A stretch of DNA of 64,000 nucleotides from an uncultured bacterium (GTDB lineage: Bacteria > Patescibacteriota > Minisyncoccia > Phycocordibacterales > PALSA-1337), in contig CAIQIZ010000028.1 in the NCBI GenBank assembly GCA_903872035.1, positions 24,038 through 88,037 of the forward strand. Reading direction: 5' to 3'. Positions 18,364-63,487 of this stretch are shown in pieces; position 1 is the stretch's first letter; each line of letters opens with the position of its first letter. The notes below the pieces were generated by a model. That model made no database searches. It saw only the letters and a program-made list of their open reading frames with translations, and was not told where the DNA came from. Both the position numbers and the translations under genes were made by a program.

Positions 18364-18419
18364 GTAACACTTTGCCAGTTTGAAACTGGCCCACAGTTAT
18401 CAAACTAGCAAAGTGTTAC
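18364..18419 (-). repeat. Family-1 palindromic extragenic element, copy A (subfamily with AACTGTGGGCCAGTTT apex)
   Basis: 12-bp perfect arms GTAACACTTTGC / GCAAAGTGTTAC around a loop containing CTGGCCCACAG. Confidence 0.6.
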
Positions 18420-18434
18420 TCGCTAAACTCATTC

Positions 18435-19199
18435 ATGTACAGCCAGTTCATCTTTCAACCTCTTTATAACGGCCTAGTCGGGATCATGGTTTTGATCCCA
18501 GGCATAGACGTAGGCATCGCAGTCATCATATTTACGATCATCATCCGGCTGATACTCTTTCCCCTGTCCAAGAGCGCCTTACTGACGCAGGTGCGAATGA
18601 AAGAGGTCGAACCAGATGCGGCTAAGATTCGCACACAGTATGCAGCTGACAAGCAGACGCAAGCTTTGAAAATAATGGAGCTTTACAAGGCCAGAAAAGT
18701 AAAACCTTTCTCGGGGATCCTATTGCTCATCATCCAACTGCCAATACTTCTAGCTCTTATCTCGGTCTTTTATAAAATCATCCCGACCATAGATACGCAC
18801 CTGCTTTACTCGTCGATCCTGAACGCATTCACGCATATGTCTGCGCCACGACCAACTCTCTTGGGCCTGGATCTGACGAGCAAGAATCTTGTCCTGGCTT
18901 TGATCACTGGTGCTGCACAGTTTTTCCAGCTCCATTTCTCGGTAGCAGCCAGACAGCAGAAAGAAATGGCTGCGAGCACTATTAAAAGCGGTGGTTCTTT
19001 GGACAAAGCGTCGCAACTATCGAACTCCATGAATTCGCAGATGAAGTTTCTTCTGCCGTTATTAGCCTTCGCCTCGATTTATTGGATTATTCCAGCCAGA
19101 TTCCCCCAGGCATCATCGATCATCGCAATATATTGGTCAGTTAGCGCCTTATTTACTCTAGGTCAGGAACTATATATCAAGAAGCGGCACCTGAAGTAG
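18435..19199 (+). CDS. yidC: Membrane protein insertase YidC (short form)
   Basis: 254 aa, multi-TM, KPFSGILLLIIQLPIL motif. Confidence 0.8.
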   Translation: MYSQFIFQPLYNGLVGIMVLIPGIDVGIAVIIFTIIIRLILFPLSKSALLTQVRMKEVEPDAAKIRTQYAADKQTQALKIMELYKARKVKPFSGILLLIIQLPILLALISVFYKIIPTIDTHLLYSSILNAFTHMSAPRPTLLGLDLTSKNLVLALITGAAQFFQLHFSVAARQQKEMAASTIKSGGSLDKASQLSNSMNSQMKFLLPLLAFASIYWIIPARFPQASSIIAIYWSVSALFTLGQELYIKKRHLK

Positions 19200-19219
19200 C
19201 ATATCAACCAGAAGACTCC

Positions 19220-19271
19220 GAAAATACTCCCGTTTGCCGCTGGCCCACAGCGCTCAAACAGGAGTATTTTC
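19220..19271 (-). repeat. Family-1 palindromic element, copy B
   Basis: 17-bp arms; the core, read on the minus strand, is GTTTGAGCGCTGTGGGCCAGCGGCAAAC, identical to copy F. Followed on the plus strand by TTTTCTTTG, so it may also terminate yidC. Confidence 0.7.
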
Positions 19272-19297
19272 TTTGTCTTCCAATCTTCGCTCAACTA

Positions 19298-20629
19298 TTA
19301 GTGTGAAGCGGAGAGATCATACGACCAGAAGCTTAGGTCGTTTTTGTTCATGAAGAATAGATAACCATCTTGGGGATCGAGTTTCAGGTTGAAAGCGTCG
19401 ATGACACGGTCGCTCTTGTCGACGATGGTAGAGACAAGGTTGATCTCACCGGTGCCTGCGTTCAACTTCCAGATCTTGTCGATCGTTGAAAGTGTTCCAG
19501 TATACCAATCGTCAGGATAGGTTCCGGAAACGGGTTGTGACGGCACGGCGCAGTAAACGCTATTCATATTGAGATTACCCCAAGCGCATTTGTCGGCCAA
19601 AGTACGGAATACGGCGCTGGAGAAGCTACCGGAAGAGACGGTATATATAGCGGTGTCGACGTTCTGATCATTGTTAGCCGAGGAGGCGAGCACGTAATGT
19701 GCGTCATGACTGGTTCTGGTGCTGAGGCCAGCGATCGGACCAAGGATCTTCTTCCAGATACCAGTCTTGGTGTTCACGAAGTACAAGTATCCCGGCTGAC
19801 CAGCAGAACCTTTGGTAGTAATGGCGATGGTATTGGTTTCCGTCCACTCGACGTTAACTTGAATAAGCGGGGTACTGAACAGTCTAGCCATGCTTGATCC
19901 ATCGAAATTCGAGATATATCCGACACCAGCACCGTTTTCATTGACGAGAGTGAACAACTTGTCTCCTTTTGGTGAGGCGGCGAAGGCTACGATATTATCT
20001 TGCAGGTTGTTGCCTTTCAATTGGAATGGAGTCGTTCCCACCGAGTTCTTGTTTGAGGCAGCTGCAGATGGGTCCTGGGCTTTAAGTTGGGCGTAAAGCG
20101 TGGTAGGTGTGTCGATCTTGCTGGAGAATATTGACCCGACGAAGGCGGTCAAATTCTTGTTCCAAACACTCTCATACATACGCGGAAGGATGGTATTGGA
20201 AAGAGTCGCGACTGTTTCCGAAGCGAGCGATAATTCGTAGACGTTTCCTCTTCCTCGGTCTATCCAACGGACTATCGTTGTTGAGGCGCTGGTGCTAGCC
20301 GAATATCCGCCTACTGGGGTTCCGCTTATCATGCGCAAAGTCGCGATCCTGACGGTTGATGGTTGAATAGAAACCGGAGTGTTGCTCAAGCTTGAAGGAG
20401 TCGAGCTTCCAGTTCGATTCGTTGAATTCGAATTGAGTGGAGCGAAACCGCTAACTGATTGTTGGCCCGGAGAGGTCAGAGCCACGGTCGGTTTCCCTGC
20501 CCCGTAGAAAAAGAAGTACCAATAGGCCAAGCCGGCGAGGACAAGGCAAGTGATGATCGCGATTGGAATTACAAGGGATTTGTTCATGGAAGGTTTACTT
20601 CTTGCAAGCTGGGTCATTGGGCGCGCCAA
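19298..20629 (-). CDS. Membrane-anchored hypothetical protein with a beta-rich (propeller-like) extracytoplasmic domain
   Basis: N-terminal TM helix; start may be the internal MNKSLV. Last gene of the minus-strand T4SS-like block. Confidence 0.45.
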   Translation of the reverse strand: MARPMTQLARSKPSMNKSLVIPIAIITCLVLAGLAYWYFFFYGAGKPTVALTSPGQQSVSGFAPLNSNSTNRTGSSTPSSLSNTPVSIQPSTVRIATLRMISGTPVGGYSASTSASTTIVRWIDRGRGNVYELSLASETVATLSNTILPRMYESVWNKNLTAFVGSIFSSKIDTPTTLYAQLKAQDPSAAASNKNSVGTTPFQLKGNNLQDNIVAFAASPKGDKLFTLVNENGAGVGYISNFDGSSMARLFSTPLIQVNVEWTETNTIAITTKGSAGQPGYLYFVNTKTGIWKKILGPIAGLSTRTSHDAHYVLASSANNDQNVDTAIYTVSSGSFSSAVFRTLADKCAWGNLNMNSVYCAVPSQPVSGTYPDDWYTGTLSTIDKIWKLNAGTGEINLVSTIVDKSDRVIDAFNLKLDPQDGYLFFMNKNDLSFWSYDLSASH

Positions 20630-21788
20630 AGTTTGGGTTGCACAGCTTGGCCATTGTAGTGGTAATACTGGCTTGCAGCTTAGCCTTATTTGGATCGTCA
20701 GCTGACATATTATTCAATATACCATTAATAACTTGTGAATTTACTTGTTTGATTCCATCGACAGGCGCATTTTGGAGTATGCTGTCTTGCAGCAGTAATT
20801 GACCATAATTATAATAGTAGGTGCTGTCTAGTTTCTTGATGTTATCTGGGGTATCGGCTCCAAGCAATTGAAGATTTTGGAGCCCTTCGTTATAGGCTTT
20901 ATTAACATTATCCTCATTGTTTCTTACGTCCTGCAATGTTTTTGTTTGAGTAACTGAGTCCCCCGATGAGTTAAAGTTGTTTGAGTTTCCCCCATTCATT
21001 TGAGCGCTTATTTCAGTTTGCGCAGTCAAGATAGTAGCTGCCGCCTGCGCATCTGCTATCTGGTTGGTGGTGTCTTGAATTTTGGCATTTACAGAAGCCA
21101 GACGTGGATCAGTGTCGCTAACGCCCTCAGAGTATAGTAATTCGTTTTGTTGGGCTTTTAAGCTCGTCAAATTTTGTTGAAGCGATGTTACTGTTGCCTT
21201 TTCTTGCGTCATTTGTTGTCCGTACTCGGAAGTTTGTGCATTATAGGCCTTTGCATCTTGAGTGAGTTGATCAAAAAAGTCTATTGTAACAGGTTGGGTT
21301 AGGTTAGGTTTCAATTGTGTTGACAATTGTGGTACCAATGTTGAAGGTATATTCACGAACGCTGGATTGATGGCGCCCAAGATTAGATATGAGCATAGTA
21401 CCAGAAGGAGGCCGATCAAGGCGTTCTGGACCTTTTTTATCCCGTCGCCCTTGCCTTGGAATGAGCCAGTGGTCATGTATTCAAGCCCGCCGTAAACGAT
21501 CATGAAGACCGCTGCCACAGCCGCTAAAGCGATGAGAAGATTCATGGCGTATAGAACGTACTGCTGAAACGATACGGTAGTTACGGTTGAACCTTGGGCA
21601 CAACCACCAGAAACCGATACTACACAAGGAAAAGGAGCAAGCAACTCATAATCTTTTGGCGCCATGGTGGCCGAATCGGCTGCCATCGTTTGGGGAGTCG
21701 CTGGAATTATCAGAATGCAGGTGGATAATATACAGCTGCACGCGGCGATGGCGATTACCTTTTTCAGTGATGAATATGAAAATCTCAT
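20595..21788 (-). CDS. VirB2/TrbC-like pilin domain fused to a long Q/N/T-rich coiled-coil tail
   Basis: Long signal peptide, then two hydrophobic helices separated by a short loop (LIALAAVAAVFMIVYGG...ALIGLLLVLCSYLILGA), typical of T4SS pilins. About 250 extra C-terminal residues. Confidence 0.4.
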   Translation of the reverse strand: MRFSYSSLKKVIAIAACSCILSTCILIIPATPQTMAADSATMAPKDYELLAPFPCVVSVSGGCAQGSTVTTVSFQQYVLYAMNLLIALAAVAAVFMIVYGGLEYMTTGSFQGKGDGIKKVQNALIGLLLVLCSYLILGAINPAFVNIPSTLVPQLSTQLKPNLTQPVTIDFFDQLTQDAKAYNAQTSEYGQQMTQEKATVTSLQQNLTSLKAQQNELLYSEGVSDTDPRLASVNAKIQDTTNQIADAQAAATILTAQTEISAQMNGGNSNNFNSSGDSVTQTKTLQDVRNNEDNVNKAYNEGLQNLQLLGADTPDNIKKLDSTYYYNYGQLLLQDSILQNAPVDGIKQVNSQVINGILNNMSADDPNKAKLQASITTTMAKLCNPNFGAPNDPACKK

Positions 21789-21792
21789 GGTA

Positions 21793-22836
21793 TTAATTGG
21801 TTATTGATGGCGCAGCATTTGAAGACGCTGCAGTGAACATGGCTGTAAAACCGGAATTGGCGCTCTGGAGGATCTGCTTATTGTTGGCGATACTCAAGGT
21901 GATATTAGAAGCTCCCGCTGTTCCTACGGGCGCACGCAAGATAACGGAATCATTTGTAGTCAATTCTGGATGCGCGACGTTGTTGATAAGCCAAGAAAAA
22001 GAAAGATCTCCAGATTTATTGGCCGGTTTATTGAAACCGTAAGGAATGGCTAGAATGTTGGCTTCCCTTTGCGAACCGATGCGATACGAAGAGTTGATAG
22101 CCAAGTTGAAGAGCGGACCATAGAGAGGATCGTTTATGTAAAAAGTGATCGAAGGCGATTGGGGGGTTATTGTGATCATGCTTTCAGCTTGGCCGGAGCC
22201 TGTGCGCGGTGTCACGTTCACGGACAGGTCATATGCTCGAGGGACTATATCCCCCACTAACATGATCGACTGTTTTCCATAACCAGACTGGTCTCCGAGG
22301 ATTTGGTTATTCTTGCTCCATTGGTAGATGAGAGTTTTTGGGTCGTATTCAACACCATCTGAATTGGCGATATGAGGAACAGCGACCACAGTAACGGAAT
22401 TTTGATAAACAACGGGCGCTTTTCCTCGGAAGGAAGGTGGCACGTAACCATCTGTTTCAGTTACTAGGTCGACCGAACCTGAACCGATCACGGTGCTTCC
22501 GGTGGTTGTTTGGCCATTATTCGTGACCATTGTGACTTTTATATTCAGTTTTTTACCGAGAGCTGGGGCGGTCACTGTGAGAGTCGTAAGACCGTTGCCG
22601 CTTTGAGCCACTTTACCATTGACCGACCAAGTAATCTTCGATGAATCGATACTGGCACTATAGCTCGCTGCTGTGATCGTTATTTGTTGTCCAGGTGCTG
22701 GATTTTCCGATGAAACCGAGAGGGTGACACCGCCGGATGAGGGAACACTTTGGGCGTGCGAGCAAGGAGCAAGAAGGAAGGAGCAAGAAGCGAGGAGGAC
22801 GCCGGCGGATACGATTGATAGAAAATGACGATTCAT
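21793..22836 (-). CDS. Secreted beta-rich hypothetical protein
   Basis: Signal peptide MNRHFLSIVSAGVLLASCSFLLAPCSHAQ, Thr/Ser-rich. Confidence 0.5.
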   Translation of the reverse strand: MNRHFLSIVSAGVLLASCSFLLAPCSHAQSVPSSGGVTLSVSSENPAPGQQITITAASYSASIDSSKITWSVNGKVAQSGNGLTTLTVTAPALGKKLNIKVTMVTNNGQTTTGSTVIGSGSVDLVTETDGYVPPSFRGKAPVVYQNSVTVVAVPHIANSDGVEYDPKTLIYQWSKNNQILGDQSGYGKQSIMLVGDIVPRAYDLSVNVTPRTGSGQAESMITITPQSPSITFYINDPLYGPLFNLAINSSYRIGSQREANILAIPYGFNKPANKSGDLSFSWLINNVAHPELTTNDSVILRAPVGTAGASNITLSIANNKQILQSANSGFTAMFTAASSNAAPSITN

Positions 22837-22897
22837 CAGTGTCTATTTTAACATGAATTAGTCGGATGGAATGAAGAGTTATCACCATTTGGAAACT

Positions 22898-23443
22898 TTA
22901 TGCAGAGAATGATGACTCGGCATTTTTTACCGATTTTCCAATCGTAGGTCCTGTTGCTTGTATATGGCCTCTAGGTCTTCCGACACCATCTACGTAGAAT
23001 CTAGAGGATTCGCTTGGTTGAAGCTGTTCGGTCCTAGCTCTACCCACACCATCCTCGACATATTTACGAGCCATTCCGGCCTGCAAAAATTCCTCCTGCT
23101 CCCGCTCAGCGTTCATTTGAGCCTCCTCTTTTTTTACATCGCTATGAATGTACCAGACATCCAAAATCCACAGCTGCGCTATTCCGCCGGTAACTGCGGA
23201 CAGCGCCTCCATACCAACTAAAGATGCTAATCGACTCGGGTGTTGGACGAGAGAGACCTTTTTTCCGAACTGGATCCACAGAGCAATGATGACACCGACG
23301 ATGGGATCCAAAATTTCATTTATTGCCACTCCAATACCAAAGACCCAGACGAGGATGCATTCGATGATGACGAACTGTATGAAGTCCATTCCGCCAGCAA
23401 AGAGATACAATAAAAACCAGCCTTTTGATTTGGGTTTTGCCAT
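22898..23443 (-). CDS. Small membrane protein with an internal YV(E/D)GVGR repeat
   Basis: Two TM helices followed by a charged tail. Confidence 0.45.
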   Translation of the reverse strand: MAKPKSKGWFLLYLFAGGMDFIQFVIIECILVWVFGIGVAINEILDPIVGVIIALWIQFGKKVSLVQHPSRLASLVGMEALSAVTGGIAQLWILDVWYIHSDVKKEEAQMNAEREQEEFLQAGMARKYVEDGVGRARTEQLQPSESSRFYVDGVGRPRGHIQATGPTIGKSVKNAESSFSA

Positions 23444-23473
23444 TGCGTTTCAATTATAACAGAAAGCATCCCC

Positions 23474-25288
23474 TTACTGCCCTGCTGCCTCGAGATCCTT
23501 CTTGGCTTTCTCGATCTGCATGACTTGAGCTGGATTTGTGGTGATGATCTGATCCTCTGTATAGGAGGCGACGATCTTGATGGCTACGTGTTTCAAGCCG
23601 ACGAAGAACATGCCTTCCCCGACATCTGATTCGAGCAACAAGTATTTCTCTTCGTCTGTTAAGTTGAATGTTTGCTGGATGTGATCGATTACGGTTGGCG
23701 ATTGTTTGAGCAGGATCTGAATTGAAGAGTTGGTAAGAATCGGCAAACCATAGGGAGATTTCAAGAAGTCATCCACGTCTTGGGTTATTGTCGCCAAGCC
23801 AAGGTAATATTTACGGCCACGTTTTGCCAATCCGAATAGGAATGAGGCCGTATCTTCGGATTTCATCATCCACCAAGCCTCATCGATGACTAGGAGCCTC
23901 TTCTTCCTGATCTTGCGCACGGCATTCCATATGAAGTGGGTGACTATATACATGGCTACCGGCTTGAGCTCGTCTTCCATGTCGCGGAGAGAGAAGACAA
24001 CGAACTTCTTGTTGATGTCCACGTTTGAAGGTCTGTTGATGAAGCCGGACCAGGTTCCTTTGGTGTACTTGGTCAATCTTTGTACTAATGATTCACCACC
24101 TTCCATTCCAGCTAGGACGAGCTCGAAGTCAGACAAAAGAGGCGGTTCGACTGTGCGAAAGTCGGATTCTGGAGATATATCCTTGAGCGCATATGTTTCG
24201 GTGATGGCACGATCGATGATAGCGTCCTCTTCTTGGGACAGGCCGCCCAACATGATACGGAAGAGGCCGACCAAGTTGATGATGTTAGATCGTAATACGT
24301 CCGCTGCCGATTCATCTTCGGCTGGTATAGGTAGATCGAATGGGTTGATATGGTGCTCAGAATTCAGAGAGATGTTGAAATACTTCCCTCCTGTAGCTTC
24401 CGACATGTATTCATATTCTTTTTCCGGATCGATGACGATCACATCGGTATCGAACATCAAAGTCCGAAGAATCTCCAGCTTTGTGCAGTATGATTTACCG
24501 GCACCAGCCACGGCGAACGTCACAGAATTGTAGTTTTCAAGAAGGTATCGGTCGAAAAGGACCAGCGATGAATTGTGGCGATTTATTCCATAAAGTATTC
24601 CTTTATCTGAAGTGAGGTCGAAAGAGACGAACGGGAATAGCGACGAGAGTGGCGAGGAGTTCAGCTTGGAATGTACCGCCAATTGGTCGTCGGCTATAGG
24701 AATGACTGATTTGAAGCCTTGTTCTTGTTGGAAAAGGGCTGGTTTGACGTAAACAAGTTTCGATTCAAGAATGGACTTGATCTCTGATTCCAACTTGTCG
24801 AGATCGCCATCAGAATCGGCAAAGATCGTAATATATACGCCAACGTCGAAGAGATGTTCTTGCGCTTGCATCAATTGGTCACGGAGCGCTTCCAGGTCCT
24901 GATATGCAGTGTCTAGGCCAGGATCGCGGACCAAACCCTTCTCTTCTCTCCTGGATATCTGGCTTTGCACCTCGGCCACTTTCTTTTGGAAGTGTCGGAG
25001 AATCTTGGCTGTTTCGACTGGGTGGATGAAAATAGAGACATTGAAGACTTTATCTAGGTTGATGATAGGTGCGAACCAGCTTTCATCGAGGAAACGCGGG
25101 TAAGAAATGACAAATAGAGTGCGGCCGACCTTCTCGCCAAGATTCAATTCCTTCGGGCTAACTTTCAAGGCTGATGGTGCGATGACGTCCTTCAGCTCCA
25201 ATACGCCCGCTTGGTAGATCTCATTAGGAAGCACCGAAACGATGGGGGCTTCTGTTTTTTTGCCGAAGAGTTTGTTAAATATAGACAT
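23474..25288 (-). CDS. VirB4/TrbE/CagE-family type IV secretion ATPase
   Basis: 604 aa; Walker A VAGAGKS, Walker B VIDEAWWMM, overall VirB4 architecture. Confidence 0.8.
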   Translation of the reverse strand: MSIFNKLFGKKTEAPIVSVLPNEIYQAGVLELKDVIAPSALKVSPKELNLGEKVGRTLFVISYPRFLDESWFAPIINLDKVFNVSIFIHPVETAKILRHFQKKVAEVQSQISRREEKGLVRDPGLDTAYQDLEALRDQLMQAQEHLFDVGVYITIFADSDGDLDKLESEIKSILESKLVYVKPALFQQEQGFKSVIPIADDQLAVHSKLNSSPLSSLFPFVSFDLTSDKGILYGINRHNSSLVLFDRYLLENYNSVTFAVAGAGKSYCTKLEILRTLMFDTDVIVIDPEKEYEYMSEATGGKYFNISLNSEHHINPFDLPIPAEDESAADVLRSNIINLVGLFRIMLGGLSQEEDAIIDRAITETYALKDISPESDFRTVEPPLLSDFELVLAGMEGGESLVQRLTKYTKGTWSGFINRPSNVDINKKFVVFSLRDMEDELKPVAMYIVTHFIWNAVRKIRKKRLLVIDEAWWMMKSEDTASFLFGLAKRGRKYYLGLATITQDVDDFLKSPYGLPILTNSSIQILLKQSPTVIDHIQQTFNLTDEEKYLLLESDVGEGMFFVGLKHVAIKIVASYTEDQIITTNPAQVMQIEKAKKDLEAAGQ

Positions 25289-25292
25289 ATGT

Positions 25293-25985
25293 TTATGTGA
25301 TCTGGATAGGCTTCTCTGTTTCTCCCGGATTGAATAGCTTGTAATACAATTCGACCACTTCTTCTGTTCCCAATTCTGCAGCCCTGATGCCGCAGCGGAC
25401 CAAGCCTTGTTCGACTACCGATACCCTCTGCTCGAGTTGGCTACGGTATTCTTGGAATTGAGCATCGGCTGTTTCAGTTTGATTCTTTCCTTGATTTTTT
25501 CCTGGTAAGAATTTTGTCAGAGGATTGTTGCTGGCACTTATCATCGCCGGATCGTACGGAATGACCACAAAGAAGCTCTTGGACATGATATTGGTGCTTT
25601 CCACGAATGTCTTGATGAATTCGATATATTCGCGCACCTGGATCTTCATAAGCTCGGTTAACTGTTCCTTGTAGCGATCTTCCAGAAGAGCAATATACGG
25701 CCGTATGTCTAGCTTTTTTGACTGGATGAATATTTGGATGGAAAAATCTAGAGAGTTCACGAAATTCTGGAATTGCATGAGAATGGAACTCTGCTCATCC
25801 TGCGATTTCAAGGCAAAGTTGAGCGATGAAGCCAGGATGATGGAGCGCATGCCCCCATTTCTCAAGATGACCACGCCGTCGCGGATCTCCTGGATAGGCA
25901 CGAAGTTTTGGGTGGTTTGTGATTTGACGTTTTTTGCCATAGGAATTATCGCTGATTTACCGCTGATTCTTATTCGAATAGACAC
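25293..25985 (-). CDS. VirB4 N-terminal-domain-like protein, translationally coupled to VirB4
   Basis: Stop TAA, then ACAT, then the VirB4 ATG (4-nt gap). Core pattern PIQEIRDGVVILRNGG...FQNFVNSLDFSIQIFIQSKKLD resembles the non-ATPase N-domain of VirB4-family proteins. Confidence 0.4.
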   Translation of the reverse strand: MSIRIRISGKSAIIPMAKNVKSQTTQNFVPIQEIRDGVVILRNGGMRSIILASSLNFALKSQDEQSSILMQFQNFVNSLDFSIQIFIQSKKLDIRPYIALLEDRYKEQLTELMKIQVREYIEFIKTFVESTNIMSKSFFVVIPYDPAMISASNNPLTKFLPGKNQGKNQTETADAQFQEYRSQLEQRVSVVEQGLVRCGIRAAELGTEEVVELYYKLFNPGETEKPIQIT

Positions 25986-26391
25986 TCTCTTTGATATCCA
26001 AGCTCCAGGTCAGGTCTTTGAGCTTGCTGTCAGAGATCTTTGGAACCATGATAGAAGCGTAGCTCTTGACCTCATCGCCGGTCACTTCGGCTGATTTTTC
26101 TGGTATCTTCTCCTCTTTCTTCCATATATATAGCTTGTTCCCCCACCAATATTTGAATGCTGCCTCCATGACATTGACAAAGGGTTTGTTGTTGATTTTG
26201 TAGAAGGCTAAAGCAGCCGATAGCGCCATGATGGCGACGATGGGAATGAACGATAAGATGATGCTTTTCAAGAATACGTAGACTACGAAAGACAATCCTC
26301 CCCCGCCGACCAAGTATATGAATTGCTTCAAAGTGAGCGGTCCGAAGATCTTGTCTTCTACTTCGATGAATTGAGGTACTTGAAAACGCAT
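25957..26391 (-). CDS. PrgI/VirB3-like small T4SS membrane protein
   Basis: N-terminus MRFQVPQFIEVEDKIFGPLTLKQFIYL followed by two TM helices, matching the PrgI family pattern. Confidence 0.5.
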   Translation of the reverse strand: MRFQVPQFIEVEDKIFGPLTLKQFIYLVGGGGLSFVVYVFLKSIILSFIPIVAIMALSAALAFYKINNKPFVNVMEAAFKYWWGNKLYIWKKEEKIPEKSAEVTGDEVKSYASIMVPKISDSKLKDLTWSLDIKESVYSNKNQR

Positions 26392-26483
26392 TATGGCCTA
26401 ATTATAGCGTCAAGCGAGGATTTGTGGAAGCGAGCCTCCACAAAATACGAGCGGAGACGATATATGAGTGGAGCGAATATAGC
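26392..26483 (-). promoter_or_regulatory. Family-2 gene-upstream module: tandem-repeat box, hairpin, -10 TATAAT; promoter of the prgI-virB4 operon
   Basis: On the minus strand TATAAT lies 9 nt before the ATG at 26391. The conserved distal box is GCTATATTCGCTCCACTCATATATCGTCTCCGCTCG. The element fills the entire 92-nt intergenic gap. Confidence 0.5.
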
Positions 26484-27302
26484 TTAGCTGATCGATTCTT
26501 TGTATGGATCACCTGGTTTTGGATTGCTGACATCGATTTTCTTCGGAGTTTGTGGTGTTGGTGGTGGGACTGGCTTCGGTACGACAGGTTGTGGAGCGGC
26601 TGGAACTGGTGTGGTCGCATTTGGTATCGCTGCTATTGAAGGTTGGGAATCTTTTGGTACGGTAAGCGGAAGAGTGCCTTTTTGGTTAATCGGCGTTTGT
26701 GATTCTTCAATTTTCGGTGGATTTTCCAGGATGGACGGGCACGTTGTCGGGTCCTCTACGCCAGCCAATATCTTTGCTCTGTCTGCGACAGTAATCCCGC
26801 TACTGCTTTCCAATATGCTGCTCGGCCTATCGATGCTGAAATCGCCAGCTGTTTCTACAGATGACATGGTCGATTCAGCATGATCGTTTTCCAAAGGTTG
26901 CTCTAGAGCAGCGATGTCTTGCTGTCCAGTGTCGTTCGTTTGTTCGTCGATCGCTCGTGCAGCATCTTCAGATTTTTTAGATTTCTCCTCTATCTCTCGC
27001 ATCTGGGTCTTTATTGTCGAAAACACCTGACTATTTATATCAGTTGCGATCATTTGAGAAAGTTTTGCGTCGATGGATAGCCGATCAGAAAGGTCACTTA
27101 CAAATGTGGATGCTTTGGCGAAACCCAGTATCACTAGAACGACTTGATCGACAAGATCACCAACCTGATCGATCATCAGTTCATATTTTTTTCCAATGGC
27201 CTGGATCGTGTTCAGAACTTCTTGCGATGAAATTGCTTTCTGCAGTTCCTTCGGCAGTTTCTCGAATTGGGCCTGGATTTGTTCGGTGGTGTAGTCTTTC
27301 AT
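26484..27302 (-). CDS. Hypothetical protein with Pro-rich C-terminus
   Basis: 272 aa, within the T4SS-like block. Confidence 0.45.
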   Translation of the reverse strand: MKDYTTEQIQAQFEKLPKELQKAISSQEVLNTIQAIGKKYELMIDQVGDLVDQVVLVILGFAKASTFVSDLSDRLSIDAKLSQMIATDINSQVFSTIKTQMREIEEKSKKSEDAARAIDEQTNDTGQQDIAALEQPLENDHAESTMSSVETAGDFSIDRPSSILESSSGITVADRAKILAGVEDPTTCPSILENPPKIEESQTPINQKGTLPLTVPKDSQPSIAAIPNATTPVPAAPQPVVPKPVPPPTPQTPKKIDVSNPKPGDPYKESIS

Positions 27303-27313
27303 GTCATTGATTG

Positions 27314-29305
27314 TTATTTCTTTGGCGCATCTTTCGGTGTATCCTTGGGTGCTGCTGACGCTTCAGACTTCGTCTCTCTTGCAACAGCCTTCGCCATTCC
27401 GTCAATTCGTTCCTTCTCGGCCTCTTCTTCCCCAGCATCGATATCTTTTTGTAGTCGTACTTGTTCTTTCTCAAGACGCTCAACATCTGCTAATTCCTCA
27501 GGGCTAGCCGGAATTCCCGGTTTAAAACCAATAGGTTTCCCCTTTGCCACAATCTTAGCTTTGAGTTCTTTAAGTTCATCATCCACTCTCGTTTTCTCAC
27601 GTTTGTTAGCTGCCAGGTCTGACTTCGCTTTTTTATCTCGAACTACCTTGTCCAATTTTGCTGCTGTTTGCCGATTTGCTCTGTTATCGATAGCGAAACC
27701 TATTGCACCACCAAGGTATAGATTACCCGGGCTAGCCTTCCAAGGAAGACTTTCACGATATTTCGCCTGATATGCTTTGGCTTTATCCTTAGCTACTCCA
27801 AAGGCCTTATCTCCTTCGGGGCCTTGGGCGAAATCACCACGGTCGACTTTATCCAACCTATCATGCATTCCTTCCTCGGCTTTTTTCTTTGCTGCTAAGC
27901 GAGCTTCGTATCCACCCGCTTTACCCCCACCGAAGCCGCCTGTGCTGACCTTAGACAGACCAGAAGAAGCTAAACCGCCGATGCCGGGCAAACGGCTTGC
28001 CAGGAATTTCATCGGAGCGCTTTCGTTCGCTCTGTAAGCCGCACGTCCGAGAGTTCGAGCACCAGCCTGGCTTCCGACACCCTTCCAAATATTTGCCGCG
28101 CTGAACTTCTTCATGGTTTTATCCATCCATCCAGTCGCAGATCCGCCCATCTTGAGGCCGACGATGAGAGGAAGGTTGAGCATGACTATGACCATGGCAA
28201 AATTGATGGCTAACACCATATAACTGAAAGTCCAATTGGTACCGGCTGGCAAGCTTGAAATATTGGAACTAGCCGCGCCCATGATGTTGCTTTCGTTGAG
28301 GACTTTCAAGGCTGCATACATAAGCAAAAGATACACGGGCATAAAGACTAATTGGGCCTCTAGTTGTGTCTTGAATTCTTTCATTTTGTCTGCTATTTGC
28401 GGGATGATCATACCGGCAAACCATATAGGTGAGAAGGCCAACAGAAATAGCAGGATAACCAATCTTGCGATGAATGCCGCCGCAGCCAAGAGAAAGCTGA
28501 AAGCGGCTGTTATCATTATGACAATGCCGACTATACCGACGACGATGATTGTGAAGGAATCTCCAAGTTTAGTTCCGATCCCGTTAGTCTTGGTATTAAA
28601 ATTGGTTTGGATCTTCAGGCTGTTCATGAAGATTTGAGAGATGCCATTTCCCGCGCTGACATTTGAGGTGCTTTGGGTCATTCCGGTTGCTGTCGCCAAA
28701 TCGGCTACGGTCGTCTTATCAGTCATGGTGATAGATGTTGGTACCATGGAGTTGAAAATAGCCAAAGAGACGACATTTGAAGCATCGATGAGGACGCTGA
28801 CTATGAAGAAACTGAAGTTGATCAGTATACCAGCGGTGACGATGGAGACTATCACTTTGCCATAATTGTTTCCAAGACCAAGGATGATTTGGAAGGCCGC
28901 GTATAGAAGGAAAAATATGAAGAATATGCCGGTCACGTCGCGGATAGTCTGCCAAATGGCGTAAATGGCGGGTGTGGCACTGACGAAGTCTTTGATGTGC
29001 ATGGTTATAACTATGGAAACGTTCAATATACCTCCGGCGAATGTGAGCATTATGCCCATAGCGTCTAAAGCAGTATTAACAATGTTTGATAGTACAGTAT
29101 TTATGCATTTCGTCGGATGAAGGACGTCACTCACGCTACATCCAGTTTGGCCACCGCCCGAACCTGGGTCAGGAGTGCTTGTTGGTGATGGAGACGCAGT
29201 TACAGACGGCGTTGGAGTCTGTGCGTTTACAGGAACTGCAAACAAAGAAAACACCGTAAGGACGAGGAAGAGTATCGGGATGATTTGTTTGAAATGCGAT
29301 TTCAT
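27314..29305 (-). CDS. Polytopic membrane protein, possibly VirB6/TrbL-like, with a charged C-terminal tail
   Basis: Signal peptide, six or more TM helices, then a Lys/Glu-rich hydrophilic C-terminus. Confidence 0.4.
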   Translation of the reverse strand: MKSHFKQIIPILFLVLTVFSLFAVPVNAQTPTPSVTASPSPTSTPDPGSGGGQTGCSVSDVLHPTKCINTVLSNIVNTALDAMGIMLTFAGGILNVSIVITMHIKDFVSATPAIYAIWQTIRDVTGIFFIFFLLYAAFQIILGLGNNYGKVIVSIVTAGILINFSFFIVSVLIDASNVVSLAIFNSMVPTSITMTDKTTVADLATATGMTQSTSNVSAGNGISQIFMNSLKIQTNFNTKTNGIGTKLGDSFTIIVVGIVGIVIMITAAFSFLLAAAAFIARLVILLFLLAFSPIWFAGMIIPQIADKMKEFKTQLEAQLVFMPVYLLLMYAALKVLNESNIMGAASSNISSLPAGTNWTFSYMVLAINFAMVIVMLNLPLIVGLKMGGSATGWMDKTMKKFSAANIWKGVGSQAGARTLGRAAYRANESAPMKFLASRLPGIGGLASSGLSKVSTGGFGGGKAGGYEARLAAKKKAEEGMHDRLDKVDRGDFAQGPEGDKAFGVAKDKAKAYQAKYRESLPWKASPGNLYLGGAIGFAIDNRANRQTAAKLDKVVRDKKAKSDLAANKREKTRVDDELKELKAKIVAKGKPIGFKPGIPASPEELADVERLEKEQVRLQKDIDAGEEEAEKERIDGMAKAVARETKSEASAAPKDTPKDAPKK

Positions 29306-29311
29306 AGAATA

Positions 29312-31072
29312 TTATGGGGCGGCTGTCGGCGTGGCCGTTCCACTGGTGCAAAGGGCTTGGTATGGCGCCAGAGTCGTCTGAAGCGTGGTGGCTGTTTGGG
29401 TGGCGGTAGTGAGATATGTTTGGGCAACTTGCGGATCTAGAACAGCCGTAGTTGACTGGGCTATGAGGTTGTTCAAACTATTTTGTTGGTCGGTCAACTG
29501 TTGGGCTGTTGTGGCGCTTTGCATCTGTGACACAGCGCTTTGGATGGCTAGCAAGACAGATTGCGTGCTGTTATAAGCGCTTTGATATTGGTTGACTGCT
29601 GGAGTCACAGTGATGGAGATGACGTTATTCAAAGCAGTGAGGCTCGTTTGCAGACTTGCCGCTGCTCCGGAAGCGCTGGCTCGCGTCTGTAGACAGGCTG
29701 AAGCCGCTGCATAAGCAGTTTGTTGTTGTTTTATGAGTGTGAGTGCCGAATTCAAAGTCGTCACTGATTGTTGGACTGATGCGACCGCAGTATTGATCGG
29801 AGCAACGGTCTGCTGTTTGAGATTGGTGAAGTTTGTTTGAAGTGCTGGGTCGCTGTTTGCGTATTGGTTGATGAATGATTGGGATGCTGCGTTGCTTCCA
29901 GAGCTTGAATTGCTAGAAGTTGTTTTCGTCAAAGACAACAATCCACCACCATTAGAGAGGACCTGATTGAAGAGCTGATTTGTCAAAGCGGTGGCTATCT
30001 CGTTTATATCGTGGGTCATGTTCAAAGTATCGGTTTGGGCACCGAGCTGTTTGTTGAGTGCGGCGGAAATGACTGAACCTGGCGTCTCGACGTGGCAGAC
30101 TTTGGTGGTTGCGGTGCTTCCAGAAGATGTTTGAACGTTGTCGCATTTTTGCCATGACAAGAATCCATTTCCCCTGTTCAGGTCATTATTGATCGCGTTC
30201 TGTTTTTTCTGTATCTGCACATCCAGGTCGCTCTTTGCTTGTAGGGCAGCCCCGAAAGCATTGTTTTGTGGCTCGGACACTAGAGCCATGAAAGCTGGCC
30301 AGCCACCTTGACGGAAATCGCCTCCCATGAAGCCGTCGACGCTGGCACCATTAATGCTTATATCGTTAGGGTTGTTCAGGACATTTCCTGACATTATATC
30401 TCCTAGATTTGTGCCATTCGAACTTCCCTTAACTGAGACGGAAACATTGCCGCTTTGTTTGGCTGTCTGTATCACCTTGCTCAAGGTACATGTATATCGT
30501 TGATTTAAGGTCGATGTTTGTCCCAATGCTAGCGAGAGACGAAGGTCGATATTGAATGGAGAACAGAGTGATTTACCTAACGGACCGAGGTCGCTGATGA
30601 ATGCCCCGGTAACTTGGTCGGCGGCATCCATGAAGAAACCTTCAGGATTCTTTAAGAACGCCGGTTCTCCTTTGAAGCCGGTATTGATCCAAGTTACTAC
30701 GCTATTCGTAAGTTGGTGCAGTATCACCTGGGCAGCTTGCCAGGCCAGGCCTTTCCATGTGCAGACGTCATCCTTCACGGCCGTAGTATTTGATCTAACC
30801 GTTGCGTCGGAAACAGGCACCGCATTCCCACCAATGATGCTCCCTACGCTACCGCTTCCACCACTGCCGCCACCGATACCTACTGCGCTTCCTATGCCAC
30901 TTAAAATCGATCCCATGTTACAAGCGATCAGTCCCGCCCCCACTCCCCCGACCGCTCCTGCTATTTGTGCCTGTGCTGTTGCGGGAAGATATACTGCCGA
31001 GGTCATGAATAGAATCGAAGTAACGAATGCTAGGCAGATCCCATTTTTGATTATGTTGTTCTTGATTGTCAT
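29312..31072 (-). CDS. Secreted Gly-rich then Q/T/S-rich protein
   Basis: Signal peptide; low-complexity repeats. Confidence 0.45.
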   Translation of the reverse strand: MTIKNNIIKNGICLAFVTSILFMTSAVYLPATAQAQIAGAVGGVGAGLIACNMGSILSGIGSAVGIGGGSGGSGSVGSIIGGNAVPVSDATVRSNTTAVKDDVCTWKGLAWQAAQVILHQLTNSVVTWINTGFKGEPAFLKNPEGFFMDAADQVTGAFISDLGPLGKSLCSPFNIDLRLSLALGQTSTLNQRYTCTLSKVIQTAKQSGNVSVSVKGSSNGTNLGDIMSGNVLNNPNDISINGASVDGFMGGDFRQGGWPAFMALVSEPQNNAFGAALQAKSDLDVQIQKKQNAINNDLNRGNGFLSWQKCDNVQTSSGSTATTKVCHVETPGSVISAALNKQLGAQTDTLNMTHDINEIATALTNQLFNQVLSNGGGLLSLTKTTSSNSSSGSNAASQSFINQYANSDPALQTNFTNLKQQTVAPINTAVASVQQSVTTLNSALTLIKQQQTAYAAASACLQTRASASGAAASLQTSLTALNNVISITVTPAVNQYQSAYNSTQSVLLAIQSAVSQMQSATTAQQLTDQQNSLNNLIAQSTTAVLDPQVAQTYLTTATQTATTLQTTLAPYQALCTSGTATPTAAP

Positions 31073-31078
31073 AGTGAT

Positions 31079-31945
31079 TTATCGGACTAGCGCATTCAAA
31101 GCGTTCTGATTGATCATGAATGGAACCCCCTCGCCCTCCAGTACAGCGTTCATATCTTGTAGGCCGGTGATGATCTGTTGGGCCCCGGTCACGTGCATAG
31201 ACATACCGGATAGGCCGCTTACGGAGTCAGTGTCAAAGCCGCGAAAATCTACAGCTGCGGATTTCATCGTGCTCAGGGCGTTCACAAGTTCTAGATATTG
31301 GGATGAAATGATCTCGGGTGTAGGGATAGCAAGAAGTGAAGAGATCATCCTCTTGTATGCAGCGATGATCGGGTCGATATTTTTGAGTACGGATGGATCA
31401 TTCTTGGAAATATATGATTGGACGATTGAAGATTGGCTAGTTCTTATATTATATGAATCGAGGACCGTGGTGACTGCCTGGCTGAAGGTTAGTAGCGTAT
31501 TTTTATCGTTTGCGGCGATCGTATGCAAATCACCGACAACATATAATTTTGTTGGATTTGTATTGATATGCTCAGCCGCAATATTTGCTGTCGTTTGGTC
31601 TATAGCGTCCTGATCATTCACCAAATCTGCTTGTTTCAGTCCGATATAGCTGGTAAAGAAATCTCTCGCTAAGTTATCAGTTGCTGTAAGCTTCTCTTTT
31701 GTGATGGCGGAATCGCTGTTCGGAGGTGTCTTAACTGTCCCCTCGAACTGTTTCTTCCAGTCACCATTGTCGGTGCTAGTATTTGGTTGCAAATCTGTCA
31801 CCACAGCAGCCGAGTTGTTGTTGCCAGCGCCATTTATTTGGCCAGCGTTTGCGTTTAACGAGGCGTAATGGGTTGTTCCCCAGACGGCCAAAACGCAAAC
31901 CACGAATATTATTACCGTCTGCTTACGCGGGTAGAAAATCGCCAT
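31079..31945 (-). CDS. N-terminally membrane-anchored hypothetical protein; first gene of the minus-strand block
   Basis: Single N-terminal TM helix. Tandem TATACT TATACT directly before the ATG. Confidence 0.45.
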   Translation of the reverse strand: MAIFYPRKQTVIIFVVCVLAVWGTTHYASLNANAGQINGAGNNNSAAVVTDLQPNTSTDNGDWKKQFEGTVKTPPNSDSAITKEKLTATDNLARDFFTSYIGLKQADLVNDQDAIDQTTANIAAEHINTNPTKLYVVGDLHTIAANDKNTLLTFSQAVTTVLDSYNIRTSQSSIVQSYISKNDPSVLKNIDPIIAAYKRMISSLLAIPTPEIISSQYLELVNALSTMKSAAVDFRGFDTDSVSGLSGMSMHVTGAQQIITGLQDMNAVLEGEGVPFMINQNALNALVR

Positions 31946-32027
31946 AGTATAAGTATACCAGCGTGAGGCTTTAAAATCTTATAAATTTGGGGATAATGAT
32001 ATTAGATCAGGAGTAATCCGAATGCGT

Positions 32028-32113
32028 GATATATTCGCTTCGCTCATATATCGTCTTCGCTCGAATCTCAAAAATGCGAGCATTTACGAGATTCTCGCTA
32101 GCCGCTATAATTA
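32028..32113 (+). promoter_or_regulatory. Family-2 gene-upstream module in plus orientation; promoter of the 32120 gene
   Basis: GATATATTCGCTTCGCTCATATATCGTCTTCGCTCG box, a hairpin of different sequence, -35 TTTACG at 32083-32088, 17-nt spacer, -10 TATAAT at 32106-32111, and the ATG 8 nt later. Confidence 0.5.
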
Positions 32114-32119
32114 CTTCAC

Positions 32120-33226
32120 ATGACTAAGTCGATCTTATTGTCTATTGTTGCAGTCTCTTGTCTCTTGGTTGGCATAGCGAGCGTTTCTGCGAGTACGACC
32201 TTCCGTCGGAATCTCTCCATCGGTGCTCAGGGTCCAGATGTCAGAGAATTACAAGTTATTCTCAATAAAGACCCACTGACAGCGGTTTCCTCAACCGGTT
32301 CTGGGTCGCCAGGCTTGGAAACTGCATATTTTGGGGTCAAAACTGCCAAAGCCGTGGCTAGATTTCAAGAGAAATATGCCAAGGACATTCTCACACCGAA
32401 CAATTTGACGTCGGGAACCGGATTTGTTGGCTTAAAAACAAGGGAAAAGCTGGAAAGTTTGATAAATTTGAGTATTTCTTCTTCGAATACTCCTCAGGTG
32501 AGTGTTGTCCCCGCCGTTTCGCCAGCAAGCACAGCGGTGAGTCCTGTGGTAATTCCTTCTGTGCCCATTCCAGGCATAAATACGGCCGGTTCTTTGAGTA
32601 GTGCAGATATTCAGAAATATCTGTCCCGTGGCGTTATTCCCCAAAGTCTTGCATTTGACCGAGTTTTTCCGAATGACCTTATGATTTTTGGGCTTTCTCA
32701 TAATAAGGCCAAACCCGGCGATCAATTGCAGGTCACTGGCGGCGGTTTTGCGAATACCATGATATTTCACCTTGGTCCGGCGAATAGTGTCAATGTTCAG
32801 GCAACTACTGCCGATCAATTCTCGATTACGGTGCCGAATATTTCATTCGGACAATACAAGGTTTGGCTTACGGATGCGACCAGAACTACCGAAAACGCGA
32901 CCCCACTCTTTCTCACTATCGGAAATATTACTGACGATCGCCCCCTCATCGCTTCCGTGTCACCTATACAAGCCGATAGAAATAGCCAGATTGTCGTAAC
33001 TGCCGACTCGCTCGACACCACTGGCAATACGGTTTACTCGAATATTGGTATAATCAGATCAGTCAGCTCGCCTGATGGCCATAGTCTGACATTCAAAGTA
33101 AGTGATTTGCCCAATGCTGCAGTATTCTTCAGTGATACGAATATAAATCAGTTCACAGTTACGTTCAGCATCGGAACATCCAAAGGAAAGAGCTTAAATT
33201 ACGGATATTTTCATTTAACGAAATAA
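32120..33226 (+). CDS. Secreted protein with N-terminal PG_binding_1-like domain and Ig-like repeats
   Basis: Signal peptide; motif AVARFQEKYAKDILTPNNLTSGTGFVGLKTREKL. Confidence 0.55.
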   Translation: MTKSILLSIVAVSCLLVGIASVSASTTFRRNLSIGAQGPDVRELQVILNKDPLTAVSSTGSGSPGLETAYFGVKTAKAVARFQEKYAKDILTPNNLTSGTGFVGLKTREKLESLINLSISSSNTPQVSVVPAVSPASTAVSPVVIPSVPIPGINTAGSLSSADIQKYLSRGVIPQSLAFDRVFPNDLMIFGLSHNKAKPGDQLQVTGGGFANTMIFHLGPANSVNVQATTADQFSITVPNISFGQYKVWLTDATRTTENATPLFLTIGNITDDRPLIASVSPIQADRNSQIVVTADSLDTTGNTVYSNIGIIRSVSSPDGHSLTFKVSDLPNAAVFFSDTNINQFTVTFSIGTSKGKSLNYGYFHLTK

Positions 33227-36594: not shown

Positions 36595-36698
36595 GGAGGT
36601 ATCTTACAGGAAGAATGATGAATGAGGAATGATCGGCGGTGCAGTAAAAGTTCCTACTACGTCGTTTGGCTCTAGGAGATTATGTTTTAGAAGGCGAA

Positions 36699-36750
36699 GG
36701 AAATCTTTTTGTTTGAGCGCTGGGGGCCAGCGGCAAACAGAAAGATTTCC
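36699..36750 (+). repeat. Family-1 palindromic element, copy C
   Basis: GGAAATCTTTTTGTTTGAGCGCTGGGGGCCAGCGGCAAACAGAAAGATTTCC. Flanks (GAAGGCGAAGG on the 5' side, CGGAGTCTTC on the 3' side) are shared with copies F and B. Confidence 0.7.
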
Positions 36751-36975
36751 GGAGTCTTCGACAATACTTTATTTGACAGTTCGTCAATAAAGGTTATTAA
36801 AAGTAAGGTGTGCATATCTCTCGTTGACAATAAATCCTTGCCTGATAACCTAGAGAGATATCCTACAATAAGTAAGTAAAAAAATGGCCACACAGAGCCA
36901 TTTATTGTATAGGAATAAACACACTGGACGTATGGATGGCAGATCTGGCTGACTTGCGGAAAGAAAAAATTTATT

Positions 36976-63465: not shown

Positions 63466-63487
63466 TAGAGCCTTTAGTAAGTTTTGA

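Follow-up and report, generated by a model that had tools for sequence, protein, structure and literature searches.

Gene organization of the block

A 64-kb stretch of contig CAIQIZ010000028.1 from an uncultured bacterium, referred to here as the window, contains between positions 19298 and 31945 exactly 11 consecutive minus-strand open reading frames (ORFs) of 144 to 663 amino acids (aa), which are separated by spacers of only 4 to 92 nucleotides (nt). The original prediction, which had been made from the letters without database searches, had counted eleven consecutive minus-strand genes, and the ORF listing bears out this number. The block is a real 11-gene type IV secretion system (T4SS) operon of a Parcubacteria/Paceibacteria bacterium belonging to the candidate phyla radiation (CPR). 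The genes are designated A to K in the order of transcription (Table 1). The family scan against Pfam took in the ORFs of the window with at least 120 aa.

Two gene starts were moved inward from those of the longest ORFs because the consensus of the orthologs starts at an internal methionine and independent gene calls on identical metagenome contigs agree with it: gene F most likely starts at 25940 and not at 25985 (longest ORF 25293-25985), and gene K most likely starts at 20587, which is M15 of the longest ORF, and not at 20629 (longest ORF 19298-20629). The independent calls give 215 aa and 429 aa, respectively. A further ORF of 72 aa (26402-26620) was rejected as spurious; it overlaps gene D and a promoter-like module, has no family match and is not called on the identical contigs.

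Table 1. Genes of the block and associated non-coding elements (positions in the window).
Feature	Position	Strand	Length	Description
Gene A	31079-31945	-	288 aa	N-terminal membrane anchor and extracytoplasmic domain
Gene B	29312-31072	-	586 aa	secreted, signal peptide
Gene C	27314-29305	-	663 aa	polytopic, VirB6-like translocon candidate
Gene D	26484-27302	-	272 aa	lacks a signal peptide; DPY(R/K)E at the C-terminus
Gene E	25957-26391	-	144 aa	PrgI/VirB3-like
Gene F	25293-25940	-	215 aa	TrsD-like, detached VirB4 N-terminal domain
Gene G	23474-25288	-	604 aa	VirB4 ATPase body
Gene H	22898-23443	-	181 aa	membrane protein
Gene I	21793-22836	-	347 aa	secreted, Ig-like repeats
Gene J	20595-21788	-	397 aa	T4SS_pilin hairpin and C-terminal extension
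Gene K	19298-20587	-	429 aa	anchored, predicted extracytoplasmic beta-propeller
Promoter-like region of gene A	31946-31975	-		tandem TATACT hexamers abut the ATG; 9/12 consensus match
Repeat module, about 80 nt	26403-26483	-		just before prgI (gene E)
Repeat module, about 80 nt	32031-32109	+		faces away from the block, before the PG_binding_1 gene 32120-33226
Repeat module, about 80 nt	52254-52334	-		well conserved
Repeat module, about 80 nt	8819-8897	-		degenerate at the hexamer end
Palindromic hairpin	19211-19283			where the stops of K and yidC converge; further copies 36687-36759, 63406-63474

The recognizable secretion core

Gene G encodes the ATPase of the system. It scores 366 bits (3.8e-109) with the NCBIfam model NF045971 conju_CD1110, a VirB4-like conjugal transfer ATPase with a curated cut-off of 325 bits, and it is also matched by Pfam PF19044 (2.3e-26) and by the solved VirB4 of Thermoanaerobacter (4AG5, 3.1e-39) and TrwK of R388 (7e-5) among the sequences of the Protein Data Bank (PDB). 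Walker A (AVAGAGKS) and Walker B (LLVIDE) are intact, as in a VirB4 ATPase. The match to the CD1110 model spans profile positions 179-733 only, and the N-terminal part is supplied by gene F, which matches VirB4_plasma of NCBIfam (2.5e-12, profile positions 97-233), TrsD (1.3e-5) and positions 1-116 of the CD1110 model (1.3e-4), aligns by BLASTP with a clostridial VirB4 of 783 aa that is not split (residues 35-128, E 8e-8) and carries the precomputed label PF26593, TraC-like. Therefore, as judged from these matches, VirB4 is encoded in two genes, F for the N-terminal domain and G for the ATPase body. Gene F is separate from virB4 in all 78 related loci in which it was found.

Gene E is the small VirB3/PrgI-like membrane protein that adjoins virB4. 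It exceeds the cut-off of the Pfam family PF12666 (PrgI; 4.4e-12, 46.8 bits versus a cut-off of 27), and its hydrophobicity and topology show two transmembrane segments that form a two-helix membrane hairpin.

Gene J has three hydrophobic segments in all: after the signal peptide come two helices, which form a hairpin that fits the pilin model. In the window copy, residues 83-140 match PF18895 (T4SS_pilin) at 1.4e-4 with 22.3 bits, under the cut-off of 26.6; the same family was matched by all six orthologs that were scanned, two of them above the cut-off. Behind the hairpin follows a Gln/Asn-rich helical C-terminal extension of about 250 aa, and the orthologs range from 106 to 628 aa (median 322). 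With 397 aa the protein is not a small subunit of the VirB2/TrbC type, for which the mature form has about 70-130 aa.

The product of gene C has a signal peptide and then a polytopic membrane domain with several hydrophobic segments (residues 60-430), and its C-terminal tail is rich in Lys and Glu. No Pfam family matches the window copy. TrbL/VirB6 families of Pfam match 4 of 38 orthologs (best 1.6e-4) and two further homologs over nearly the full profile, below the cut-off. An AlphaFold2 model (m25c819c707ec, pLDDT 76) was compared with known structures by Foldseek, and among the top ten hits by E-value the highest probabilities belong to the TrwI/VirB6 chains of R388 (0.72-0.90, TMt 0.38-0.45, E 0.14-0.4), followed by DotA of Legionella (0.51), with E-values of only 0.14-0.7 overall. 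When the profile of the C family was aligned by hhalign with the 264-aa protein encoded upstream of PrgI on a clostridial plasmid, no relationship emerged (probability 0.2%), and the profile of gene C found nothing significant among PDB sequences, only coiled-coil noise. Some homologs carry the precomputed label PF19590, which we take to be a TrbL-like family; the Pfam scan did not confirm it and it was not relied upon. Taken together, fold comparison and sub-threshold family matches suggest with moderate confidence that gene C is VirB6-like.

The searches with hidden Markov models (HMMs) that had been proposed as a check on the original prediction thus recovered each of the families it had named: the PrgI/VirB3-like protein lies above its family cut-off, the VirB4 N-domain-like ORF and the VirB4 ATPase reappear as F and G, and the VirB2/TrbC-like pilin corresponds to the T4SS_pilin domain of gene J, below the cut-off in the window copy and above it in two of the six orthologs. 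Of the claim of a VirB6-like polytopic protein, the polytopic protein itself stands, and the VirB6 family was recovered weakly, below threshold.

Six further conserved components

Genes A, B, D, H, I and K have no significant family match in Pfam or NCBIfam, and they are as conserved in presence and order as the core. The original prediction had spoken of several large secreted or membrane-anchored proteins, and signal peptides or anchors are indeed seen in A, B, I and K.

Gene A, present in 41 of 42 full loci, has a hydrophobic segment at residues 3-28. It has no Pfam match, and its profile found no match among PDB sequences. The majority of its 120 listed homologs carry PF18884, the bacterial TSP3 calcium-binding repeat, and the source records of two of them use the name 'thrombospondin type 3 repeat-containing protein'; in the window copy the repeat is reduced to a degenerate 'TDNGDW'.

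Gene B, likewise present in 41 of the 42 full loci, has a conserved Cys-containing N-terminal domain (about residues 95-380), which is poorly predicted in the AlphaFold2 model (meba2692d8bba), and a bundle of three long helices at residues 400-580, which is modelled with a pLDDT of 88-98. Foldseek found generic helical bundles only and no VirB5. A role as a VirB5-like stalk or tip protein had been considered for gene B, which precedes the VirB6-like gene and contains a three-helix bundle; it was rejected in view of the lack of VirB5/TrwJ among the Foldseek hits and the poorly modelled N-terminal domain. A relationship with DUF4141 was rejected as well, the matches of homologs covering the signal-peptide region alone (positions 2-45 of a 53-position profile). 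The profile of gene B yielded nothing significant against PDB sequences, again only coiled-coil noise. The structure prediction that had been proposed as a further check was carried out for B and C, with generic bundles for the former and a sub-threshold VirB6-like result for the latter. Three larger B orthologs contain discoidin (F5/8 type C) domains, which may point to binding of surface glycans. The longest B orthologs (about 780-840 aa) belong to loci L026, L029 and L039 of the set described below and are the likely discoidin carriers, the scan having given counts only; if they are the carriers, lineage-specific lectin modules on gene B would be likely.

Gene D consists of a conserved N-terminal helical domain, a low-complexity Pro/Ser/Thr-rich linker and a conserved C-terminal DPY(R/K)E. 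The window copy ends in GDPYKESIS (26484-26510), and no other DPY[RK]E peptide is encoded in the window, whichever frame is read. Among 69 related loci, 57 have DPYRE(P)(I/L) at the end of the ORF that immediately precedes prgI, and the peptide is conserved although the linker in front of it is highly variable. The peptide looks like a docking motif, and it is proposed that gene D might encode a cytoplasmic or membrane-associated adaptor. In six loci (L036, L045, L049, L056, L067 and L079) an additional gene of about 120-140 aa lies between D and E just upstream of prgI; its product presumably resembles the four-helix-bundle proteins of 23S rRNA intervening sequences.

Gene H encodes a protein with two to three transmembrane segments and a variable charged tail, and members of its family directly follow virB4 in 66 of 80 loci according to an iterated profile. 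Gene I, which like gene C is present in all 42 full loci, has a signal peptide and three Ig-like repeats, each with a W..NG motif in the consensus; weak matches are to BiPBP_C and MG4 of Pfam and, with the profile against PDB sequences, to Hoc and the polymeric-Ig receptor. Gene K has an N-terminal membrane anchor and two invariant cysteines, Cys348 and Cys360, near the C-terminus. Its mean column identity of 33% (ortholog alignment A3) is the highest of the surface components. Among 42 orthologs of gene K weak beta-propeller matches were obtained (PD40 in four, DPPIV_N in two and DUF5050 in two), and the profile found no match among PDB sequences.

Genomic context and conservation

The block is flanked by ksgA and uvrD on one side and by yidC-rnpA-rpmH together with dnaA-dnaN on the other. 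The plus-strand genes rpmH-rnpA-yidC and the minus-strand genes dnaA-dnaN diverge around 17.8-18.0 kb, and the minimum of the cumulative GC skew lies at about 14-18 kb, so that oriC is likely placed at about 17.8-18.0 kb. In view of the skew minimum there, the 3' end of the operon is only about 1.5 kb away from the likely origin. The operon is on the lagging strand and is thus oriented head-on to replication, and its orientation towards oriC is kept in all related loci. From 18 to 64 kb, the lagging strand carries about three quarters of the coding bases according to a tally of the ORF list.

To obtain comparison loci, one genome per species was scanned for relatives of gene G. At least 500 were found, and the best 80, which are 77-95% identical, were used as loci L001-L080. 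The lineages named for these are mostly Paceibacterota, Parcubacteria, Taylorbacteria and Zambryskibacteria, with one large reassembly (TPA) series labelled 'uncultured Candidatus Saccharibacteria'. The original prediction had proposed a synteny comparison with Saccharibacteria loci; as a correction, the lineage is Parcubacteria/Paceibacteria and not Saccharibacteria (Taylorbacteria belong to the Parcubacteria group of Patescibacteria). Iterated profiles found all 11 families in related genomes. The order uvrD-ksgA-(PG-binding gene)-A to K-yidC-dnaA-dnaN recurs in loci with full flanks; the exact order ABCDEFGHIJK is found in 32 of the 42 full loci, and seven more differ only in that H falls below the threshold.

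The degree of conservation differs greatly between the components. The median identity to the window is 80% for VirB4 (G), 63% for F and 57% for E, compared with 58% for DnaA, 53% for UvrD, 51% for DnaN, 47% for KsgA and 40% for YidC, and it is only 26-36% for A, B, C, D, I, J and K. Among the proteins compared within the same genome pairs, VirB4 clearly evolves most slowly. This pattern points to a constrained cytoplasmic motor that is combined with fast-evolving surface parts.

The GC content of the block equals that of its flanks. VirB4 proteins of plasmids, the best matches being from Firmicutes and Actinobacteria, are at most 35.5% identical, in contrast to the 77-95% within the CPR set; the grouping with CPR VirB4 proteins is judged from these identities. 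Because site and gene order are fixed, VirB4 is conserved above DnaA, the GC content is that of the flanks and plasmid VirB4 proteins are distant, the locus is a vertically inherited core locus and not a mobile element.

Several features of the surroundings were noted in addition. Envelope functions are dense near the origin and comprise a PilB-type ATPase of type IV pili (4217-5890), an M23/LysM peptidase (36976-38112) and three secreted PG_binding_1 proteins (5907-6716, 32120-33226 and 61884-63452). Between 49043 and 51486 four tRNA genes (Arg-TCG, Gly-GCC, Pro-TGG and Gly-TCC) alternate singly with small protein genes, among them those for a UPF0102 protein, a 228-aa ORF without assignment and a 171-aa ORF with weak matches. 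A Fic/DOC gene is located at 53531-53944.

Promoter-like modules, probable terminator and other repeats

An intergenic repeat of about 80 nt occurs in four copies in the window (Table 1). The original prediction had placed promoter modules at an internal start (26392) and at the upstream end of the block (32028), and both turned out to be real copies of this repeat. The module contains CGCT-rich boxes and an internal hairpin (TTGTGGA..TCCACAA), and the well-conserved copies, those at 26403, 32031 and 52254, have GCTATAAT or GCTATACT at their end, shortly ahead of a start codon. The copy in front of prgI ends in GCTATAAT (10/12 consensus match), 9 nt ahead of the ATG, and the terminal hexamer of the copy at 32031 is likewise located 9 nt before a start codon. 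The full module was also found upstream of prgI in L006 and L009, and many related loci share a TATAAT that precedes the prgI ATG by 7-10 nt. The module is probably a lineage-specific promoter or operator cassette. Together with the putative promoter region in front of gene A, it would provide the two promoter-like sites, before A and before E, from which the operon appears to be read. The outward-facing copy would drive the gene of a secreted PG_binding_1 protein, a neighbour whose synteny holds in about half of the related loci.

None of the 11 genes is preceded by a Shine-Dalgarno-like sequence. Hexamers that resemble a -10 box (TATAAT, TTATAAT, TAAAAT, GATAAT and TATACT) precede the start codons of A, E, F, H and I at distances of 0-10 nt (4-9 nt for F, H and I). 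Because Shine-Dalgarno sequences are lacking and -10-like hexamers lie next to the starts, the sequence suggests leaderless, near-leaderless or otherwise Shine-Dalgarno-independent expression as a feature of this genome.

The stops of K and yidC converge on a palindromic hairpin with a predicted folding energy of -45.3 kcal/mol (z = -8.3), which is probably a bidirectional terminator shared by the two genes. The core of the element is TTTG.GCGCTGTGGGCCAGCG.CAAA, and shorter cores are found at 18378-18405, 39758-39785 and 46922-46947; the repeat resembles the family of bidirectional terminators that are similar to repetitive extragenic palindromic (REP) elements. A search of Rfam across 19000-32200, which includes two of the 80-nt module copies, gave no match at E values up to 1. 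Purine-rich repeats of the AAGGAGCAAGGAGG type were seen in at least four places (22750-22799, 34224-34273, 60293-60363 and, as the complement, 2714-2762); some of them are in coding sequence, namely within ksgA, at the start of the trigger factor gene and where gene I encodes its signal peptide.

Interpretation of the system

The original prediction had found no relaxase, no VirD4 coupling protein and no VirB11, and this holds for the 64-kb window: none of these, TcpA included, was found when its ORFs of at least 120 aa were searched against Pfam. Apart from VirB4, the window encodes a single secretion ATPase, the PilB-type protein mentioned above, which is a T2SSE ATPase with an MshEN domain. 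None of the 11 proteins matches the VirB8, PrgL or TcpC families in Pfam and NCBIfam, and the profiles of the two bitopic candidates for VirB8, A and K, did not match a PDB sequence. SLT, CHAP, NlpC and lysozyme domains, which would characterize a VirB1-like hydrolase, were not found in A to K; such a hydrolase is an accessory feature, which membership among these systems does not require. The adjacent PG_binding_1 protein (32120-33226) was considered for this role and was rejected, a hydrolase domain and a PDB match both being absent. The M23/LysM peptidase is encoded 5 kb away from the block.

The block is quite probably a chromosomal, vertically inherited, non-conjugative T4SS of Parcubacteria/Paceibacteria that descended from the conjugation machinery of monoderm bacteria (MPF-FATA, similar to CD1110 and pGO1). 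The non-conjugative character, which had been postulated from the gene content, is supported by the position of the whole operon, which occupies a fixed site beside dnaA on the chromosome in each of the 42 full-length related loci, and the same conclusion has been drawn for related systems (PMC12102498, PMC10633639). Because a relaxase and a coupling protein are missing, the site beside oriC is fixed and VirB4 evolves more slowly than DnaA, the system is probably a core organelle for host-cell contact and transfer of an epibiotic cell, and it is probably essential. As to the direction of transport, the analysis leans towards acquisition of host material in preference to export of DNA.

A working model can be sketched as follows. 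VirB4, presumably a hexamer as in its solved homologs, would dock on the membrane through E and C and, with ATP, would extract J subunits from the membrane after their insertion by Sec. These subunits would polymerize into a surface fibre or conduit, with the C-terminal extension of J outside. The anchored protein A, the helical bundle B (which might bear lectin modules in some lineages), the Ig-like protein I and the anchored, putative beta-propeller K would form the parts that cross the wall and bind the target, and D may act as a cytoplasmic adaptor via its C-terminal DPYRE peptide.

Several points weigh against this interpretation. The pilin domain of the window J scores below the Pfam cut-off, and the protein is about four times as large as a typical VirB2, so that its polymerization is not assured. 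The assignment of gene C to VirB6 rests on sub-threshold matches in both Foldseek and Pfam, neither a VirB8-like protein nor a VirB1-like hydrolase was identified in the block, and what A, B, D, H, I and K are proposed to do derives only from their topology and from weak indications of fold. A gene for a coupling protein could lie elsewhere in the genome, beyond the 64-kb window, and many VirD4 homologs of Patescibacteria are indeed far from virB4 (PMC12102498). The conservation of VirB4 is slightly inflated because the 80 loci were chosen by VirB4 similarity. It should also be noted that secretion or cell contact is an inferred function and that, for Paceibacteria, function, substrate and direction are inferred here as well as in the literature.

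A more far-reaching proposal, which is considered unlikely, is that the 11-gene operon is not a trimmed Gram-positive conjugation channel, and that it represents a new envelope-spanning architecture that serves as a housekeeping-grade importer of host macromolecules. Its core would be restricted to the split VirB4, VirB3, the VirB6-like protein and the 'extended' pilin, six lineage-specific proteins (A, B, D, H, I and K) would take the place of VirB8, VirB1 and the adhesins, and the C-terminal peptide of D would stand in for the missing coupling protein. If this were true, it would explain why the ATPase evolves more slowly than DnaA.

Among the rival explanations, a machine dedicated to the import of DNA or nucleotides, similar to ComB or to the archaeal Ced system, which would pull host or environmental DNA into a cell that is unable to make nucleotides, fares best, and it too is held to be rather improbable. 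The set of VirB2/3/4/6-like proteins without relaxase, VirD4 and VirB11 presumably resembles ComB-type uptake systems. In addition, gene G has a partial match to the model of the DNA-import ATPase CedB (1.6e-7), which is far below the cut-off, and import of DNA or other macromolecules has been proposed for Patescibacteria (PMC12102498). However, similarity to CedB is expected for any ATPase of the VirB4/HerA type, and no DNA-binding or nuclease component was recognized in the block with Pfam and NCBIfam. Moreover, comEC of Southlakia is needed for transformation and yet is dispensable for growth, and therefore classical DNA uptake fails to explain why the T4SS of this organism is essential (PMC10633639, PMC12857230).

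Export of effectors or toxins without a coupling protein, as in the Ptl system of Bordetella or the VirB system of Brucella, with the Sec-exported proteins B or I as possible cargo to the host, is a still more doubtful explanation. Several proteins with Sec signals are encoded inside the operon, protein-secreting T4SSs that lack a coupling protein exist (PMC12857230), and protein export has been raised as an option for the Southlakia system (PMC10633639). However, an effector-like enzymatic domain was found in none of the 11 proteins, and the consistent presence and order of B, I and K are those of structural parts and not of variable effectors.

An integrative and conjugative element (ICE), or the decayed remnant of one, that has integrated near dnaA is effectively refuted. 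The closest similarity of VirB4, PrgI and TrsD is to proteins that serve conjugation in Gram-positive plasmids and ICEs, but a relaxase and a coupling protein are lacking among the scanned ORFs, the sole integrase-family gene in the window (45127-46074) is about 13 kb away, the GC content is that of the surroundings, order and position between ksgA/uvrD and yidC/dnaA are identical in 32 of 42 species-level genomes, and the constraint on VirB4 exceeds that on DnaA, all of which is contrary to the expectation for a mobile element in decay. Finally, the notion that the block is no T4SS at all, with an FtsK/HerA-type translocase among unrelated neighbours, which had been named as the outcome that would overturn the original prediction, can be dismissed: secondary matches of gene G to DUF87/HerA (5.5e-6) and AAA_10 exist, but DUF87 is the P-loop core common to the VirB4/HerA group of ATPases, G exceeds the cut-off of the VirB4 CD1110 model and matches solved VirB4 structures, and its neighbours are PrgI, TrsD and T4SS_pilin proteins.

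Comparison with known systems

VirB4-centred systems that lack VirD4 and relaxase and do not conjugate are exemplified by ComB of Helicobacter, which takes up DNA, and by Ptl of Bordetella and VirB of Brucella, which export proteins. These are systems of diderm bacteria with outer-membrane cores of VirB7/9/10, and Ptl and the Brucella VirB system also have VirB11. The sequence relationship of the window locus to them is limited to the shared VirB4 and VirB6 families.

The closest ties outside the CPR are to the MPF-FATA class, in which outer-membrane core proteins are likewise absent. With the CD1110/CTn2 systems, for example of the Clostridium perfringens plasmid NZ_CP143494, the locus shares the CD1110 VirB4 model and a PrgI directly before VirB4, and with the trsC-trsD-trsE subclass of pGO1/pSK41 it shares the TrsD-like gene between PrgI and VirB4 (PMC12102498). 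In contrast, the clostridial plasmid, whose VirB4 is close among those of plasmids and which illustrates a conjugative version, has the unsplit 783-aa VirB4, and it encodes mobC, relaxase, VirD4, PrgI, VirB4 and an SLT hydrolase side by side; mobC, relaxase, VirD4 and SLT hydrolase are not found in the window. Moreover, identity to plasmid VirB4 proteins does not exceed the 35.5% given above, and the window locus is not on a mobile element. Gram-positive systems are reported to lack VirB2-like pilins (PMC12857230), and the window locus differs from them in this as well.

CPR bacteria (Patescibacteria) account for a large part of the diversity of bacteria and grow on other cells, and the T4SS is the leading candidate for their interface with the host. 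In the one Saccharibacterium that is genetically tractable, Southlakia epibionticum, the T4SS cluster (SEML1_0006-0019) was found to be essential by transposon sequencing in epibiotic co-culture; it contains pilins and lacks coupling and relaxase proteins (Wang et al. 2023, PMC10633639). The evidence for essentiality thus comes from Saccharimonadia and not from Paceibacteria. Two differences from Saccharimonadia are apparent: the window has one pilin-domain gene with an extension of about 250 aa in place of an array of 2-11 short divergent pilins, and a peptidase or lysozyme gene directly after virB4, as in the Saccharimonadia exemplar, is absent.

A distinct Patescibacteria clade of VirB4, which is related to the monoderm MPF-FATA class, has been described by Quinonero-Coronel et al. 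2025 (PMC12102498), and a review from 2025 summarizes both studies (PMC12857230). According to the former, genes for TrsD, PrgI/VirB3, VirB6 and VirB2-like proteins lie near virB4 of Patescibacteria and relaxases almost never do, and the T4SS of Paceibacteria is located near dnaA, dnaN, ksgA, rnpA and rpmH. The window locus agrees with this description, with its separate TrsD-like gene, VirB4, PrgI/VirB3, a VirB2-like gene and a candidate VirB6-like gene near virB4, the lack of a relaxase and the chromosomal site close to the same five genes. A system of this kind is therefore already known from work published between 2023 and 2025, and the window locus is correctly recognized but not new. It is a clean example from Paceibacteria, with a fixed order of 11 genes, conservation of VirB4 above that of DnaA and promoter-like and terminator elements. 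Of interest beyond the known systems are the seven components that are conserved but lack annotation (A, B, D, H, I and K as well as the extended J, to which the consulted text of PMC12102498 gives no assignment), the single extended pilin, the DPYRE tail of D and the head-on orientation beside oriC. These features of the locus are concrete targets for the prediction of complex structures and, given a co-culture of Paceibacteria, for cryo-electron tomography and genetics.

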